64,000 nucleotides of DNA, taken from assembly GCA_963718515.1 (NCBI GenBank), contig OY970354.1, forward strand, positions 502,808 through 566,807. Direction: 5' to 3'. Position numbers and translations under genes: made by a program. Source of the stretch: an uncultured bacterium. Its GTDB lineage: Bacteria; Patescibacteriota; Minisyncoccia; UBA6257; 2-01-FULL-56-20. The notes beneath the pieces are model-generated. The model saw only the letters and a list, made by a program, of their open reading frames with translations. It did no database searches and was not told where the DNA came from. Positions 2,845 to 35,190 of the stretch are shown here, piece after piece (position 1 is the first letter of the stretch; each line of letters starts with the position of its first letter).

Positions 2845-3235
2845 ATGGACGAAACCCCTCTCATTCTTATCGTTGATGACGAAGCGGCATTTCGCGAGAT
2901 TTTCAGCGCCAAGCTTGGCGCTGACGGATATCGCGTTGAGACGGCCGAGAACGGCGAAATCGGATTGGCAAAAGCCAAAGCGCTCAAACCGAGCCTCATT
3001 CTTATGGACGTCCGGATGCCGGTAATGGATGGTCCTACCGCGGTGCTGAAACTTCGCGAAGATCCGGAGACCAAAGATATAAAAGTGGCGTTTCTTACCA
3101 GCTCTCGGCGATCCGCGCATGGAGATGCAGGAAATGAGCGCCAAGATGGCGCAGGATTTTGGCGCACAAGGATATCTCCGAAAAACGGACGATCTCGATT
3201 TGTTGAACGATAGAATAAAAGCGTTTCTCCAATGA
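2845..3235 (+). pseudogene. single-domain response regulator (REC), one frameshift as assembled
   Basis: The N-terminal part LILIVDDE...LILMDVRMPVMDG...VAFLTS is in one frame. It continues as LGDPRMEMQEMSAKMAQDFGAQGYLRKTDDLDLLNDRIKAFLQ in the +1 frame from about 3100. The TGA stop at 3233-3235 overlaps the next ATG. Confidence 0.75.
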
Positions 3236-3627
3236 GGCCACGGCCGCTTATCCTCGTCGTCGATGATGAACACGATCTTCTCGAGATCATGTCCTTGAAG
3301 CTCGCCGCTTCAGGATTCGATGCGGTCGTTGCTTACAGTGCCAAGGAGGCTGTCGATGCGGCCAAGAAGATCCACCCCGACCTTATCCTTATGGATATCC
3401 ATATGCCCGGCGCATCGGGCACCGACGCGGCGCTTGAGATCAAGCAAAATCCGGAGACAAAAAATATCAGGATCGCGTTTTTGAGCAATATGAAGGATCC
3501 GTGGCCGCAGACAACATCGCCGCGCAATGCCCTCGCAAAATCGCTTGGTATGGACGACTTTATTGATAAGACCGGTGATCTGAATCTGATCGTGGCAAAA
3601 GTGCGGGAGATCCTGGGGCGAAAATAA
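3232..3627 (+). CDS. single-domain response regulator (REC)
   Basis: 131 aa. Motifs LILVVDDE, LILMDIHMPGASG, IAFLS. It has the same extra DP-containing insert after beta-5 as the upstream paralog. Confidence 0.8.
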   Translation: MRPRPLILVVDDEHDLLEIMSLKLAASGFDAVVAYSAKEAVDAAKKIHPDLILMDIHMPGASGTDAALEIKQNPETKNIRIAFLSNMKDPWPQTTSPRNALAKSLGMDDFIDKTGDLNLIVAKVREILGRK

Positions 3628-3686
3628 AAAATAGCCGTATTCGCCTCCTTGCAGATGATAGTTCGGCAAGCGAGAGCGCTATTTTT
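3626..3686 (-). repeat. conserved-loop hairpin, copy A
   Basis: The minus strand reads CCGAACTATCATCTGCAAGGAGG (plus-strand 3644-3666). It is enclosed by the outer stem AAAAATAGC/GCTATTTTT. It lies between the convergent REC gene and rpmE. Confidence 0.5.
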
Positions 3687-4038: not shown

Positions 4039-4176
4039 TCAGTGGGGGTGTATTGCTATGATGAGGAACACAATCGCGAGGACGCCGAGGAGGATGTCGA
4101 TGTGTTTCTCGTGCACGATCTTTGCCTGGCGCTCATCAAGCATCACTAGTCCGACATTCTGGTCGTGGGGATTCAT
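4039..4176 (-). CDS. small membrane protein, 45 aa (below the ORF-track length cutoff)
   Basis: Translates as MNPHDQNVGLVMLDERQAKIVHEKHIDILLGVLAIVFLIIAIHPH with a C-terminal TM helix. TAAGGAG lies 6 nt upstream of the ATG and the hairpin 3991-4012 lies downstream. Confidence 0.4.
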   Translation of the reverse strand: MNPHDQNVGLVMLDERQAKIVHEKHIDILLGVLAIVFLIIAIHPH

Positions 4177-4271
4177 GGAAAACTCCTTATCCCTAGTTGG
4201 GATTACCAAGGTGACTATAACATATAAATCGCCGCTTTGTCAAATATCACAAGACACTATGTAGCTAGAGA

Positions 4272-4330
4272 GAAAAGAAGGGTCTCGTACCGAACTATCA
4301 TCTGCCAGGAGGTACGAGACCCTTCTTTTC
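4272..4330 (+). repeat. conserved-loop hairpin, copy B
   Basis: A perfect 20-bp stem (4272-4291 with 4311-4330) encloses the 19-nt loop GAACTATCATCTGCCAGGA. It sits immediately upstream of the rRNA promoter. Confidence 0.6.
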
Positions 4331-4337
4331 TTGGGGA

Positions 4338-4365
4338 TTGACACCATCTCACCATTTGATACAAT
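4338..4365 (+). promoter_or_regulatory. sigma-70-type promoter for the 16S rRNA
   Basis: TTGACA (4338-4343), 16-nt spacer, TACAAT (4360-4365), about 165 nt upstream of the 16S 5' end. Confidence 0.55.
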
Positions 4366-4529: not shown

Positions 4530-6075
<1,546 letters not shown>

Positions 6076-6156
6076 AATATATAAAAATTTATTTTTATAT
6101 AGTCGAACTTTCTTCTCTTTGGCCAGCGATCGATCGCAGGCGAAAGCGAGGGAGGT

Positions 6157-6179
6157 AATTGGGACAACTAAAAAGCTCT
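6157..6179 (+). other. 3' arm of the pre-16S processing stem
   Basis: AATTGGGACAACTAAAAAGCTCT is complementary to 4419-4441. Confidence 0.6.
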
Positions 6180-6217
6180 TTGATGATATAGGTTGTATTT
6201 TGTGTTAAAATAAAACT

Positions 6218-6596
6218 ATGGCAAACGAGCCTAAGAAAATCATGATCATAGAGGACGACCGTTTTCTGTCGTCTTTGATGAAAGCCCGCCTCGAGAAGGA
6301 GGGATTTCTCATCGCCCAGGCGTTCGATGGCGAGGAGGCGATGCAGGCGCTCAAGACCGAGTTGCCGGCACTCATCATCCTCGACCTCATCATGCCGCAG
6401 GTAACGGGATTCGAGGTTTTGCAAACGATCTCGATCACGCCGCAGCTTGGACAAAGTGCCGGTCGTTATCCTTACCAATCTCGCGCAGGATTCCGACATC
6501 AAGAAAGCACAGGAGCTGGGTGCGAAGGAATATTTCGTAAAGGTGAAGGTTTCGATCGATGATCTCATTGGAAGGATAAAAACATTGGTGGCATAG
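6218..6596 (+). pseudogene. single-domain response regulator (REC), one frameshift as assembled
   Basis: IMIIEDD...LIILDLIMPQVTGFEVL is in one frame. From about 6446 it continues as LDKVPVVILTNLAQDSDIKKAQELGAKEYFVKVKVSIDDLIGRIKTLVA in another frame, ending at the TAG at 6594-6596. Confidence 0.75.
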
Positions 6597-6617
6597 TGCA
6601 AAAATATAGATAAAAAA

Positions 6618-6920
6618 ATGGTCTCAGGAGAAATTCTCAAAAAAATAAAGCCGGGTGCGAAGGTTAAAGTGTACGAGGGCAAGACCCCGTTCGCTGGTTT
6701 GGTGATCGCACGCAAACATGGTTCCGAACCGGGCGCGACGTTCACCGTCCGCACCGTTCTCGCGGGCGTCGGCGTGGAGAAGGTGTATCCCATCCATTCT
6801 CCCTCGATCGTCAAGATTGACGTCGTCTCAAGCCCCAAGAAAGTGCATCGCTCCAAGCTGTATTTCGTCCGGAATGTTTCGGGCGCTAAGATCAGGCAGA
6901 AGTTGGACGTGTCGATGTAG
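6618..6920 (+). CDS. rplS: 50S ribosomal protein L19
   Basis: 100 aa. The pattern KPGAKVKV...GLVIARKHGS...TFTVR...GVEKVYPIHSP is typical of L19. Confidence 0.85.
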   Translation: MVSGEILKKIKPGAKVKVYEGKTPFAGLVIARKHGSEPGATFTVRTVLAGVGVEKVYPIHSPSIVKIDVVSSPKKVHRSKLYFVRNVSGAKIRQKLDVSM

Positions 6921-7455: not shown

Positions 7456-7536
7456 GCGCGGGTGGCGAAATGGCAGACGCACTACCTTGAGGTGGTAGCG
7501 CCGAAAGGCGTGGAGGTTCGACTCCTCTCCCGCGCA
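7456..7536 (+). tRNA. tRNA-Leu (anticodon GAG)
   Basis: Acceptor GCGCGGG/CCCGCGC, anticodon arm CTACC-TTGAGGT-GGTAG, long variable arm CGCCGAAAGGCG, T-loop TTCGACT. CCA is not encoded. Confidence 0.85.
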
Positions 7537-7742
7537 CAACATGTCAAAAAAATCACGCCACATATGACTTCATTTTAGCAGAAAATAAAACGGCGCATCA
7601 GGGGTGCGTCGGGAATCTATACTACGCTTGGTTCGTGCGCCATAATCAGGTGGGCGCGCGTTCGCGTAAGCGTAGTATAGCAGTTGTGGACACGGAAAGT
7701 CCAGTGGTTGCCGCAAGGGAGAAATATGGTACTATAAACGTA

Positions 7743-8900
7743 ATGAAATCCCGAGACGGATTCGCGGCGGCGCTTGTGATATTTCTGGTTCTCGTATTGG
7801 TCATAATAGGCGCTGTTTTGTGGGTGCATTACTATTACCTCCCCAAAATGGCTGCGGAGAATTCTTCGACATCGGCAGGTTCGACGACATCGGTTCCTGC
7901 AGCTCCCTCGTTATCCGCTACATCTTCCCAGTCCGCGCCTGCTTCGGAAGGCGCGACTCCTGCTGGATGGGCGACGCATCAGAACAATGCTGGTGGATTT
8001 TCCATTGCTTATCCTTCCGGATATTCAAGCAACGACAAAGTTATCATCAGCGGTACGGGCGAGACGGATATTTACCCTGCATCAAATCCGAGCGCGCCAC
8101 TGGTTGTGGTAAATTATTCTTCCGCCGCCGGGCAGACCGCACAGTCGGCGTTCGATACCATCACTTCTGAAATTCCGCTTATCCGCCAGAGGTTCCCATC
8201 CGTCGTTGTGGCTACGAGTACGGCGTCTATTGGTTCGTTCTCGGCGCAGGTATTAACCACTTCTGGTAGTGGCCAAGATGATGCGGCGTATGTCTTTGAG
8301 GCAGGGAATGCCATCTATCAGGTTTCCATGAACTACGATGCGGGTGGTGCGGCGAATGTTTCATCCAATAAGACCCTCGCGGATAGTATCCTTGCTACTT
8401 TTCAGTTGATTTCATCATCGGCGGGGACAACTAGTAATTCCAGTTGGCAGTCGTATACTGATTCTCAGTTTGGAATAACATTCCCGTATCCACCCGGCTA
8501 CTGGGTTCAGTCGAGCATCGCTGATGCGGGATCGGAGGATATCACCGTGAGGCCCAGTGATGTACCTCAATTGAGCGGTATCGAACTCATGAAGCTTAGT
8601 ATTACGCCTGCGGGTACTGATAGCGTTCAGTCGGAAGTCGCGCAATGGACGAGCAATCTGCAATATGGGCGATATACTTTCGCAACCAGCACGGCAACAA
8701 TCGCGGGCTACTCAGCACAGCGGTTTTCGCTTTCAAAACCGGATGACAATGGTGCGCTCTATATTTTTACCAATGGGAAATCTATATTCGTAGTCTCTGC
8801 CTACTATGACAACGCCTCATCGGCTCCCAATTCTTCTTCCGTGGAGGCAACAAACGAGTCAATGGCTAACAAGATTATCGCAGGTATTGTTTTGAATTGA
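7743..8900 (+). CDS. membrane-anchored secreted protein with an internal domain duplication
   Basis: An N-terminal TM helix (AAALVIFLVLVLVIIGAVLWV) is followed by an S/T/A-rich linker. Two related modules each open with GGFSIAYPSGY or QFGITFPYPPGY. The ORF-track start at 7635 looks too early. Confidence 0.6.
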   Translation: MKSRDGFAAALVIFLVLVLVIIGAVLWVHYYYLPKMAAENSSTSAGSTTSVPAAPSLSATSSQSAPASEGATPAGWATHQNNAGGFSIAYPSGYSSNDKVIISGTGETDIYPASNPSAPLVVVNYSSAAGQTAQSAFDTITSEIPLIRQRFPSVVVATSTASIGSFSAQVLTTSGSGQDDAAYVFEAGNAIYQVSMNYDAGGAANVSSNKTLADSILATFQLISSSAGTTSNSSWQSYTDSQFGITFPYPPGYWVQSSIADAGSEDITVRPSDVPQLSGIELMKLSITPAGTDSVQSEVAQWTSNLQYGRYTFATSTATIAGYSAQRFSLSKPDDNGALYIFTNGKSIFVVSAYYDNASSAPNSSSVEATNESMANKIIAGIVLN

Positions 8901-23678: not shown

Positions 23679-24071
23679 ATGGCAACAAAAAAGAAGATCA
23701 CAAAAAGGGGGAGTAGCACAAAGGCGTGGGAAATCGGTGGCGCAGTGACTGCCGCCGCCATCGCCGCCGCGGCAGGAGCATACTTGCTGTCGGATAAAAA
23801 GACCAAAGCGAAAACCAAGAAATGGGTTCACGATGCAAAGAAAAAAATCGTAGAACACGCCAAAACCGCAAAAAAGCTCGGTGAAAAAGAATATGGCCGC
23901 ATCGTTGAGCAGGCCATCAAGCACTATGGCTCGATGGAAAAATTGAGCGCGGCGGATCTTATAAAAGCGGGCAAGGAGCTAAAAGGTGAGTGGAAAAAGA
24001 TCCAAGCCGAAGCAAAGAAAGCCAGACATTCCATACGGAAGATTGCGCACAAGAAAAAAGCCCGCCAATAA
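23679..24071 (+). CDS. hypothetical lysine-rich protein (YtxH-like)
   Basis: 130 aa. An A-rich hydrophobic segment followed by a K/E-rich helix. Confidence 0.4.
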   Translation: MATKKKITKRGSSTKAWEIGGAVTAAAIAAAAGAYLLSDKKTKAKTKKWVHDAKKKIVEHAKTAKKLGEKEYGRIVEQAIKHYGSMEKLSAADLIKAGKELKGEWKKIQAEAKKARHSIRKIAHKKKARQ

Positions 24072-24105
24072 AACCCCCGCTCCACAACCGTAGTAGAAAA
24101 TATCT

Positions 24106-24150
24106 TATATTGTTTGTCGAACTATCATCCCCAGGGAGGCAAACAATATA
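24106..24150 (+). repeat. conserved-loop hairpin, copy C
   Basis: A 13-bp stem TATATTGTTTGTC/GGCAAACAATATA (one G-U) encloses the loop GAACTATCATCCCCAGGGA. It lies between convergent gene ends. Confidence 0.55.
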
Positions 24151-24161
24151 GGATATTTTAT

Positions 24162-25409
24162 TTATTCGTACCGGAGGGCATCGATCGGACTCTTTTTCGC
24201 CGCCTGGCGCGCAGGATAGATGCCGAAGGCAATGCCGGTAACGCTCGAGACCGCGACTGCGAGCAGAATCGCGGACAATGGAAATTCGAACGACCACGCG
24301 ACGGCGAGCGCCTTTGCGATGATTAAGTACGCCAGGCCGACCACAAGGCCGCCGATCGCGATGCCGATCACGCCGCCGATGAAAGTGAGCATTACCGATT
24401 CCACAAGAAATTGCTGGAGAATATCATTGTTCGTGGCACCGACTGCCTTGCGCAGGCCGATCTCTTTTGTGCGTTCGATCACCGAAACCAACATGATGTT
24501 CATGATGCCGATGCCGCCGACGATGAGTGAAATCGACGCGATTGCGGCGAGGAATAACGTCAAGATAGAGGTAATGTTGCCGAGCAATGAAAGCACATCC
24601 TGTTGGGTTTCAATGGTAAAATCATCCTTGTTTGGATCGGTGATCCCATGGTCCTGTTCCAAAATGGATTCCACACGCGCCTGCGCAAACGTGATGTTGT
24701 AGCTGCTGTTTGCCTGCACCATGATGTCGCTAAAATAATTGATACCGAGCATCTGCGTTTGCGCAACAGTGATGGGAACCATCACAAGATCATCCTGGTC
24801 AATGCCGAACGCGCCGGTGCCTTTTGCTGCAAGCACGCCGACCACTTTGAATTGTATGTTCTTTACCTCTATATATTGCCCGAGGGGATCCGATCCAGCC
24901 CCAAAGAGCGTATTGGCAAGGTCGGAACCGATCACCGCAACGTGATTATACGCTTGCACATCATCATCGGTGAATGGATATCCCTGTGCTACCACAAAGT
25001 TGCGTACACTAAAGAAATTAGCCGGTACGCCATCAAAGGTGATGGATTCACTGTTATCACCGAACGCCGCGTCAGCTTGTCCGCGCGCCTCCTCCGTGAC
25101 CGCCGCCACCGACGGGTCGCGCGAGAGCGCGTCCACATCCTGTTGGACCAAGCTTGTCACGATGATGCCCTGCGCCGCGGCAGGGGATGAGAATCTGCCA
25201 TTGCCCGATCCTCCGGGAATAATAATAATCAAATTCGATCCCAACCCTTGTACCTGGTTCAAAATATACGCCTGCGCAGAGGCGCCGATGGACATCAGAA
25301 TGATCACGGACGAGATGCCGATGACGATGCCAAGCATCGTCAAAAGCGACCGCATCTTGCCATGCTTCAGTGTCGCCTGTGACGACTTGATGAGATCGTT
25401 AATACGCAT
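24162..25409 (-). CDS. ABC transporter permease, MacB/FtsX family
   Basis: 415 aa. An N-terminal TM, a large extracytoplasmic domain and a C-terminal FtsX-type 3-TM bundle (RTKEIGLRKAVGAT). Confidence 0.85.
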   Translation of the reverse strand: MRINDLIKSSQATLKHGKMRSLLTMLGIVIGISSVIILMSIGASAQAYILNQVQGLGSNLIIIIPGGSGNGRFSSPAAAQGIIVTSLVQQDVDALSRDPSVAAVTEEARGQADAAFGDNSESITFDGVPANFFSVRNFVVAQGYPFTDDDVQAYNHVAVIGSDLANTLFGAGSDPLGQYIEVKNIQFKVVGVLAAKGTGAFGIDQDDLVMVPITVAQTQMLGINYFSDIMVQANSSYNITFAQARVESILEQDHGITDPNKDDFTIETQQDVLSLLGNITSILTLFLAAIASISLIVGGIGIMNIMLVSVIERTKEIGLRKAVGATNNDILQQFLVESVMLTFIGGVIGIAIGGLVVGLAYLIIAKALAVAWSFEFPLSAILLAVAVSSVTGIAFGIYPARQAAKKSPIDALRYE

Positions 25410-35114: not shown

Positions 35115-35119
35115 AGGCA

Positions 35120-35190
35120 AAATAAAATAGCCAGGGTATTGAGGGACGTTCCTACGTCGGAGCGAAATACCCTGGCTATTTTATTTTTTT
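35120..35190. terminator. bidirectional terminator-like hairpin
   Basis: A perfect 20-bp stem AAATAAAATAGCCAGGGTAT/ATACCCTGGCTATTTTATTT with a 27-nt loop, followed by TTTT. It lies between convergent genes. Confidence 0.6.

Follow-up and report, generated by a model that had tools for sequence, protein, structure and literature searches.

Hairpins that share a conserved 19-nt loop form a real multi-copy family of the Paceibacterota, in the candidate phyla radiation (CPR), and it is the loop, not the stem, that is conserved; the searchable literature, queried with the loop sequence and for CPR palindromic repeats, yielded no description of the family. A first-pass annotation of the 64,000-nucleotide stretch of DNA analysed here (the window) had reported three such hairpins and had proposed a covariance-model search for more; model and pattern searches of other genomes and metagenomes brought the family to about 26 distinct loci (orthologs counted once), with the same loop on hairpins whose stems, of 13-29 bp, are unrelated.

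Within the window, GAACTATCATCYNCMRGGA closed by (G)CC on the 5' side and GG(C) on the 3' side occurs exactly three times, in each case within a hairpin and at the place first reported. The pattern GAACTATCATCNNCNNGGAGG, allowing up to three mismatches, matches copies A, B and C only, where 0.16 matches are expected by chance, and three matches were reached in none of 100 shuffles of the window; a covariance model run with its filters off returns the same three copies (59.5, 57.5 and 37.6 bits), followed by the opposite strand of copy B at 17 bits, and neither degenerate nor additional copies were found in the 64 kb. Copy B (4271-4331, plus strand) has a fully complementary stem of 21 bp, one more than first counted, in which 4271-4291 pairs with 4311-4331 around the 19-nt loop GAACTATCATCTGCCAGGA (4292-4310), with an A-rich and a T-rich tract at the stem base; folded as RNA it reaches -38.9 kcal/mol (z = -7.6). 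Copy C (24097-24159, plus strand) carries the loop GAACTATCATCCCCAGGGA (24119-24137) on 22 pairs including two G.T (arms 24097-24118 and 24138-24159), so that the 13-bp stem originally described is the perfect inner part of a longer one; its RNA folds at -23.0 kcal/mol (z = -5.9). Copy A (3626-3686, minus strand) presents the loop GAACTATCATCTGCAAGGA at 3664-3646 on a 5-bp inner stem, TTGCC/GGCGA, followed by an internal loop, the outer stem AAAAATAGC/GCTATTTTT (3686-3678 paired with 3635-3627) and a T-tract, with a folding energy of -18.5 kcal/mol (z = -2.7). As had been claimed, copies A and C lie between convergent gene ends: A between the gene of ribosomal protein L31 (3692-3934, minus; PF01197), whose stop codon and the hairpin base are 5 nt apart and whose nearest homologs are in Paceibacterota/Pacebacteria, and a response-regulator receiver ORF (3232-3627, plus; identified by eye), C between a 130-aa ORF (23679-24071, plus) and a MacB/FtsX permease (24162-25409, minus).

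Copy B lies between the -35 boxes of two divergent promoters, those of the 16S rRNA and of a small membrane-protein ORF, which are the top promoter matches in the first 20 kb. The 16S promoter (4338-4365, plus; TTGACA, 16 nt, TACAAT with TG; 11 of 12 matches) is conserved in six genomes, and its TTGACA begins 6 nt past the end of copy B, in agreement with the claim that the hairpin stands just upstream of the rRNA -35 box; the divergent promoter (4214-4243, minus) has a -35 and an extended -10 box likewise conserved in six genomes. The ORF that it serves encodes a small single-helix membrane protein of 47-86 aa (4039-4209, minus, in the window; 619-879, minus, in the relative L006; gene calls also in L069, L070, L072 and L075), has a strongly conserved promoter of its own, gave no Pfam match, and keeps its position between the 16S promoter and L31. 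The 16S gene (4530-6075) is followed not by a 23S gene but by a minus-strand ORF (6095-6856) and a tRNA-Leu (7456-7537), so the rRNA genes are unlinked; about 80 nt past this tRNA, a perfect 13-bp inverted repeat with a 38-nt G+C-rich spacer (7617-7680) overlaps the start of ORF 7635-8900. The cumulative GC skew of the window peaks near 24 kb, and at about 35 kb the strand on which most genes lie changes from plus to minus; the region of ~24-35 kb may mark a replication terminus, the amplitude of the skew being small.

Beyond the window, scans with the exact pattern yielded 31 stretches of species-representative genomes and 37 of metagenomes. Long-hairpin loops account for 11 of the former, all from three MAGs (DATJLR and DATKHM, labelled Candidatus Paceibacterota, and the unclassified CAWHOC), and for 15 of the latter, from soil and peat metagenomes, while the remaining matches show 0-2 bp of flanking complementarity, as expected of a chance background; the family is taxon-restricted. 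In the alignment of 20 copies from which the family covariance model was built, 97.9% of stem cells are paired, against 64% when shuffled; since these copies were selected for pairing, the informative contrast is that with the stem-less chance matches. The model turned up further copies with GAACGGTCATCT-type loops (L006 502-544, L002 7374-7416, L075 6964-7006); one copy, L009 2281-2315, has its closing pairs swapped to GGC...GCC with the loop intact, and at one orthologous site the loops have diverged (L130, L134). Among viral contigs, 54 relaxed-pattern matches were found, with flanking pairing of at most 5 bp and none of them a family hairpin, and a phage origin was discarded on this basis. 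Rfam 15 gave no match at gathering score, and at E <= 10 returned only shape-driven noise (miRNA precursors, a CRISPR repeat) at 14-20 bits, compared with cut-offs of 33-95.

The family consensus is (Y)(Y)GCC-GAAC(TA/GG)TCATCYNCMRGGA-GGC(R)(R), and conservation weakens by degrees along the stem, outward from the loop (GCC first, Y and Y next, none beyond), and is gone within about 5 bp. The loop has GA at both its start and its end, and on the strand as first written these terminal GAs could engage in purine-purine stacking. The stems, of 13-29 bp, are often perfect, and nearly all copies run from a 5' A-tract through stem, loop and stem to a 3' T-tract; with an A-rich start and a T-rich end, a hairpin followed by a U-tract is read from either strand, which is the shape of a bidirectional intrinsic terminator. 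Two further hairpins may be mentioned here: L012 2502-2535, a short 10-bp hairpin just past a tRNA-Ile with the loop CAAGCATCATCTGT, looks like a miniature or decayed tip of this family in the usual orientation to the upstream gene, and L035 1605-1676, a perfect 27-bp hairpin whose 18-nt loop is closed by GGC...GCC and has a reverse complement (GAATTATTCTTATCACGA) loosely resembling the family loop, may be a distant relative.

The first-pass annotation had taken a conserved loop on covarying stems as the mark of a selected structure. The hairpins are indeed a selected family with the loop as the conserved part, and compensatory change is found between orthologs; the stems of paralogous copies, on the other hand, are non-homologous sequences, and their differences are not covariation. 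At the L15-SecY site, six orthologs have 96.9% of their cells paired, with double changes at 7 of 22 pairs and a deletion of 1 bp mirrored in both arms; none of 500 shuffles pairs as well and slid controls reach 36-45%, the four-fold sites of L15 in the same genomes being 50-65% identical. Copy B and its ortholog in L006 have arms that differ extensively, both perfect (20-21 bp), and loops that differ at 1 of 19 positions, where the four-fold identity of L31 between the same two genomes is 39%.

Much of the apparent loop invariance is ascertainment, most copies having been fetched with a fixed pattern; the orthologs L130 and L134, retrieved through their proteins, have loops about 70% identical to that of L002, barely above four-fold sites. 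The L130 and L134 loops are nevertheless identical to each other at 17 of 19 positions with a four-fold identity of 51%, which argues that the loop evolves as conserved subfamilies and not by free drift. Three such subfamilies, GAACTATCATCT, GAACGGTCATCT and GARCGRTCCATCT, each span diverged lineages, and they persist across lineages that are close to saturation at four-fold sites.

Both whole hairpins and tips alone turn over, as insertions and deletions at three places and exchanges at a fourth indicate. Site B is filled in the window and in L006, and empty in L069/L070, L072 and L075, where an unrelated spacer of 40-50 nt is found instead. The L15-SecY spacer measures 15 nt when empty (L135/L136) and 87-105 nt when it holds the hairpin (L002, L032, L038, L067, L130-L134). 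L006 has an extra copy, absent from the window, between the plain terminator of the small gene and the L31 promoter. At the L31 terminator an outer stem, AAAAATAGC.../AAAATACCCC..., is common to the relatives and the tip differs: the window has the family loop, L072-74 another module, of 30 nt, L069/70 a third insert, and L006 and L075 a small loop. No target-site duplication is visible in the three filled/empty comparisons, and no conserved target was seen. Some non-orthologous copies have an inner stem of 10-12 bp in common (CAGTCCYTTGCC and CACCYYTTCGCC), which suggests that the copied unit may be the tip with a short stem. The contrast originally drawn with REP/MITE-type repeats, in which the stem is conserved, is right in that the stems are unrelated and too sharp in its implication, since presence or absence at three orthologous sites and inner stems shared by non-orthologous copies are the behaviour of a dispersed or propagating repeat.

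These shared inner stems, together with the gradual decay of conservation from loop to stem, the drift of the loop in some lineages (L130, L134) and the several unrelated apical modules seen at one terminator, would also suit concerted evolution without function, in which neutral tips on ordinary terminators are homogenised by short-patch gene conversion among identical cores of 29-43 nt, a process that would also carry inner-stem sequence outward. We consider this improbable: loop positions 12-16 are, by eye, no more alike within than between genomes, two loop subtypes occur together in one genome, the strand bias described below is left unexplained, and the first spread to new loci would still require an insertion mechanism.

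The genes beside the hairpins, identified with Pfam and ARAGORN, have little in common. The stop codons that copies adjoin or overlap are those of L31, L15, PNPase, an AAA-domain (FtsH-like) ATPase, CorA, NrdB, RecA and SmpB, and one copy follows a tRNA-Gly; many copies sit between convergent genes. Conserved structure with covariation, and a copy adjoining the 16S promoter in two genomes, are what a gene-specific cis-regulatory RNA or an element linked to the rRNA promoter would display, on a narrow reading of the hairpins. This diversity of context (L31, L15/SecY, NrdB, CorA/CysS, YbeY/FtsA, PNPase, RecA, SmpB, tRNA-Gly) largely refutes such a role; four relatives keep the same two conserved promoters without copy B, the site of copy A is occupied in relatives by other modules or by none, and Rfam offers no match, so that regulation of a particular gene appears extremely improbable and the tie between copy B and the rRNA promoter does not survive.

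Transcription and translation signals in these genomes bear on the demand for terminators. Genes downstream of co-directional copies have their own -10-like boxes, often TGnTAnAAT, a few nt before the ATG; among the 56 ATG-start ORFs of the window, TATAAT-like hexamers are concentrated 5-9 nt 5' of the ATG, and Shine-Dalgarno-like motifs precede 3 of the 56. The 3' tail of the 16S rRNA (window 6027-6075) reads GGAUCAAUUAAACUA rather than GGAUCACCUCCUUA and is devoid of CCUCC, as had been noticed; the same tail in five related genomes (the window, L006, L070, L072 and L075) indicates that the anti-Shine-Dalgarno is genuinely absent from the clade. On these sequences the clade would seem largely leaderless, with promoters before many individual genes, and leaderless single-gene transcription units imply a high demand for terminators.

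The occurrence in the hairpins of the very motif missing from the 16S tail, offered originally as a curiosity, does not stand. The CC/GG closure given as part of the consensus holds in all three window copies; these bases are, however, stem pairs, swapped to GGC...GCC in one relative (L009 2281-2315) whose loop is intact, so AGGAGG/CCUCC is not the conserved feature. An anti-Shine-Dalgarno role was accordingly set aside, the CC of CCUCC being stem-closing bases and genes that look leaderless having no need of a substitute. A mini-ORF starting at the AUG of the loop (MIVR...) and coupled to the next gene was also rejected: its stop often lies 4-17 nt ahead of the next start codon, and the same holds for frame 2, since stops occur in every frame of the A+T-rich start regions.

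When sites with a known upstream co-directional gene are counted, orthologs once (n = 12), the mRNA carries the reverse complement of the motif in 10 of 12 (two-sided binomial p ~ 0.04), so that the strand on which the motif was first written is usually not that of the mRNA. The ten are L15>SecY, small membrane protein>L31, YbeY>FtsA, CorA>CysS, NrdB>next gene, 99-aa ORF>T2SSE ATPase, permease>UDG, tRNA-Gly, PNPase and the AAA-domain (FtsH-like) ATPase; the two with the motif itself are response regulator>histidine kinase (L047) and a 66-aa upstream ORF (S1-like by eye) in L035. The wobble pairs of the stems run the other way, with ~18 G.T against 8 A.C in favour of the strand as first written, that is, the non-mRNA strand, and this conflict is hard to reconcile with a role at the mRNA level alone. 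Orientation does not strictly follow replication, copies A and B lying 600 bp apart in the same positive-GC-skew stretch in opposite orientation.

A strand bias is also what lagging-strand mechanisms acting on single-stranded DNA (ssDNA) predict, and the family could be a selfish ssDNA element, its hairpin the substrate of an HUH/Y1-type nuclease or transposase, its loop the site of recognition or cleavage and any terminator activity incidental. REP-RAYT, IS200/IS605 and rolling-circle origins, the last with a conserved nick site in the loop, would be its models. The preference of the wobble pairs for the non-mRNA strand, the presence or absence of copies at three orthologous sites, the copy in a promoter spacer that needs no terminator, and the general geometry of rolling-circle origins, a conserved loop on a variable stem, all favour a selfish element, and TGATA in the reverse-complement loop, reminiscent of nick sites of the pC194/phiX174 type, is a lead only. 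Such an origin is still unlikely: no HUH, Y1 or Rep gene occurs among the Pfam-annotated genes of ~150 kb of flanking DNA, old orthologous copies retain a loop that should decay in a dead selfish copy, neither target-site duplication nor conserved target is visible, copies A and B are oppositely oriented within one GC-skew stretch, and viral contigs contain no family copies.

Transcripts carrying the loop in both orientations, with 19 nt of perfect complementarity between the two classes and a loop predicted to be largely unpaired, might instead meet by loop-loop kissing, with each other or with another cellular RNA, in a trans-acting network coupling mRNA stability or decay. This is a very improbable account of the family, as there is no sign of a dedicated small-RNA gene, copy B has no own-strand promoter upstream, the 16S rRNA has no complementary 7-9-mer, and the strongest duplex with a window tRNA, at -18.2 kcal/mol, would have to form on the closed stem of the tRNA-Leu anticodon arm and lacks significance once multiple testing is allowed for (6 of 500 shuffles as good, with 8 tests). 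Pairing of the loop with 16S rRNA or window tRNAs was dropped, no 7-9-mer complementarity of note having been found. Comparison by eye with consensus sequences of the K-turn, box C/D, an anticodon-loop mimic, CsrA, IHF, Fur and the LexA-box gave fits of at most 4-6 nt.

Among known systems, bidirectional intrinsic terminators, which can act on both strands, are similar in their A-tract, G+C-containing stem and T-tract and in their location after stop codons or between convergent genes. A stable hairpin with a T-tract is present in nearly all copies (-18 to -39 kcal/mol), and most copies are located where a transcription unit ends, copy B and its ortholog in L006 standing between divergent promoters. 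The differences lie in the stem, 13-29 bp compared with a typical ~5-12 bp, in the loop, 19 nt and sequence-conserved across loci and genomes compared with the usual 3-8 nt, and in the one copy between divergent promoters; a consensus terminator scan, with loops of 3-8 nt, does not call the family hairpins.

The REP/BIME/REPIN repeats, for which roles in termination or in the stabilisation of mRNA have been suggested, resemble the family as intergenic hairpins found in many copies next to gene ends and as elements that one relative may have and another lack (PMC3733652, PMC3116915). REPs have a conserved stem, a GTAG/CGTC head, tens to hundreds of copies and a RAYT gene (PMC3733652, PMC3116915), whereas in the present family the stems are unrelated beyond the 3-5 bp next to the loop, the loop is conserved and the density is about 1 per 20-60 kb. 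As for the GTAG/CGTC head (PMC3733652), only copies B and C have a GTAG, a few nt on their 5' side, and the Pfam-annotated genes of the flanks that were fetched include no RAYT (Y1 transposase) gene. MITEs have terminal inverted repeats common to their copies and a target-site duplication; the family has arms that differ from copy to copy and no visible duplication at three filled/empty sites. Integron attC sites have conserved R/L boxes at the base and a variable tip, the opposite of the family, with its conserved tip and its base of variable A/T tracts.

Hairpins with a conserved loop on a stem free to vary are known from the replication origins of rolling-circle replicons and CRESS-DNA viruses, where the loop is read by a sequence-specific protein on ssDNA and a single hairpin is found per replicon, beside the Rep gene; the present family shares the first property and differs in its many chromosomal copies at gene ends, with no Rep/HUH gene nearby. 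A further parallel may be sought in the very small dispersed repeats (SDRs) of cyanobacteria, reportedly described by Elhai et al. in 2008. These are conserved units of ~20-30 nt that appear inserted in otherwise orthologous sequence and are often nested in other structures, with families unrelated in sequence and similar in shape, and the family would resemble them in these respects; SDRs, however, occur in many contexts, including heptamer repeats and HIP1, whereas the family unit invariably caps a long hairpin of terminator shape. The apical swap within the L31 outer stem fits such nesting, while at site B and L15-SecY it is the whole hairpin that is inserted or deleted. Cyanobacterial SDRs are mentioned in PMC2884548 and PMC3116915. 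The family would seem to join the shape of a bidirectional intrinsic terminator to a spread like that of REP/BIME or very small dispersed repeats.

Other conserved tips occur on similar hairpins. In the window, a perfect 22-bp hairpin flanked by A/T-tracts (35119-35187, plus strand) carries a 25-nt apical module, GAGGGACGTTCCTACGTCGGAGCGA; its GAG(CGAGT)GGACGTNCYTACGTCGGAGCGA pattern recurs on unrelated stems of 22-23 bp at L072 5284-5357 and L072 1943-2018, which cap the L31 and L19 terminators. This second family is a related class distinct from the 19-nt-loop family, and its loop has no match in viral contigs. On the 3' side of SecY, orthologous 19-bp hairpins (L135 11739-11787, L134 11813-11861) have a 17-nt tip, UAGUG(UU/CG)-NAGA-(AA/CG)CAAC, in which the mini-stem shows covariation from one genome to the other. 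Tips of 30-37 nt with yet other sequences top the long hairpins at L069 1136-1192/L070 3408-3464 and at L069 3515-3592, one of which occupies the L31 terminator, where the window has copy A. At least two singleton modules are counted besides the second family and the SecY-3' module, and the 19-nt-loop family appears to be the most widespread case of a wider habit of conserved hairpin tips in the clade.

The explanation that we favour, tentatively and at somewhat less than even confidence, is that of a terminator cassette that propagates and has a 19-nt tip which a putative trans-acting factor would recognise. The cassette would be a Paceibacterota intergenic inverted repeat with A-tract and T-tract ends, capped by the 19-nt module closed by GCC/GGC. 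Hairpin and U-tract would end or insulate transcription units, terminating transcription or protecting 3' ends, in a genome type whose many short leaderless transcription units would create the need for many terminators. The tip seems too large and too conserved for a passive loop and would offer a sequence-specific surface, presenting 5'-UCCYNNN-AGAUGAUAGUUC-3' in most transcripts; its reader would most probably be a putative protein binding single-stranded nucleic acid at the hairpin tip. Cassettes, or the apical module with 5-12 bp of inner stem, would have spread by being copied to new intergenic sites and onto the tips of existing terminators, and such copying would account for the small-dispersed-repeat behaviour.

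Several points tell against the terminator cassette: intrinsic terminators do not typically have a loop of 19 nt, which should make them weaker, nothing obvious calls for termination between the divergent promoters that flank copy B and its L006 ortholog, the L15-SecY copy has a weak U-tract in the mRNA direction, and no candidate tip-binding protein was identified. A broader proposal, which we regard as distinctly unlikely, is that leaderless, anti-Shine-Dalgarno-less Paceibacterota use modular terminator caps, each read strand-specifically by a dedicated putative factor, that would tag housekeeping 3' ends for a common fate (stabilisation, decay or localisation) and be copy-pasted between terminators; the 19-nt-loop family, the GGACGU..ACGUC-GGAGCGA family and the SecY-type module would, with the same considerable doubt, be its modules.

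CPR bacteria are uncultured, and the punctuation and control of their transcription are hardly known. The family gives this field a concrete, searchable element, with about 26 loci, a covariance model and a clear consensus, in which a terminator architecture, a sequence-constrained tip and presence/absence turnover between relatives come together. Should the tip serve as a binding site, a factor that binds RNA or ssDNA and acts on many housekeeping genes would be expected; should the element be selfish, it would be an unusually small repeat spreading inside the hairpin tips of otherwise streamlined genomes. On either reading, the family inverts the usual rule of bacterial palindromic repeats, whose stems are conserved and whose loops vary freely.
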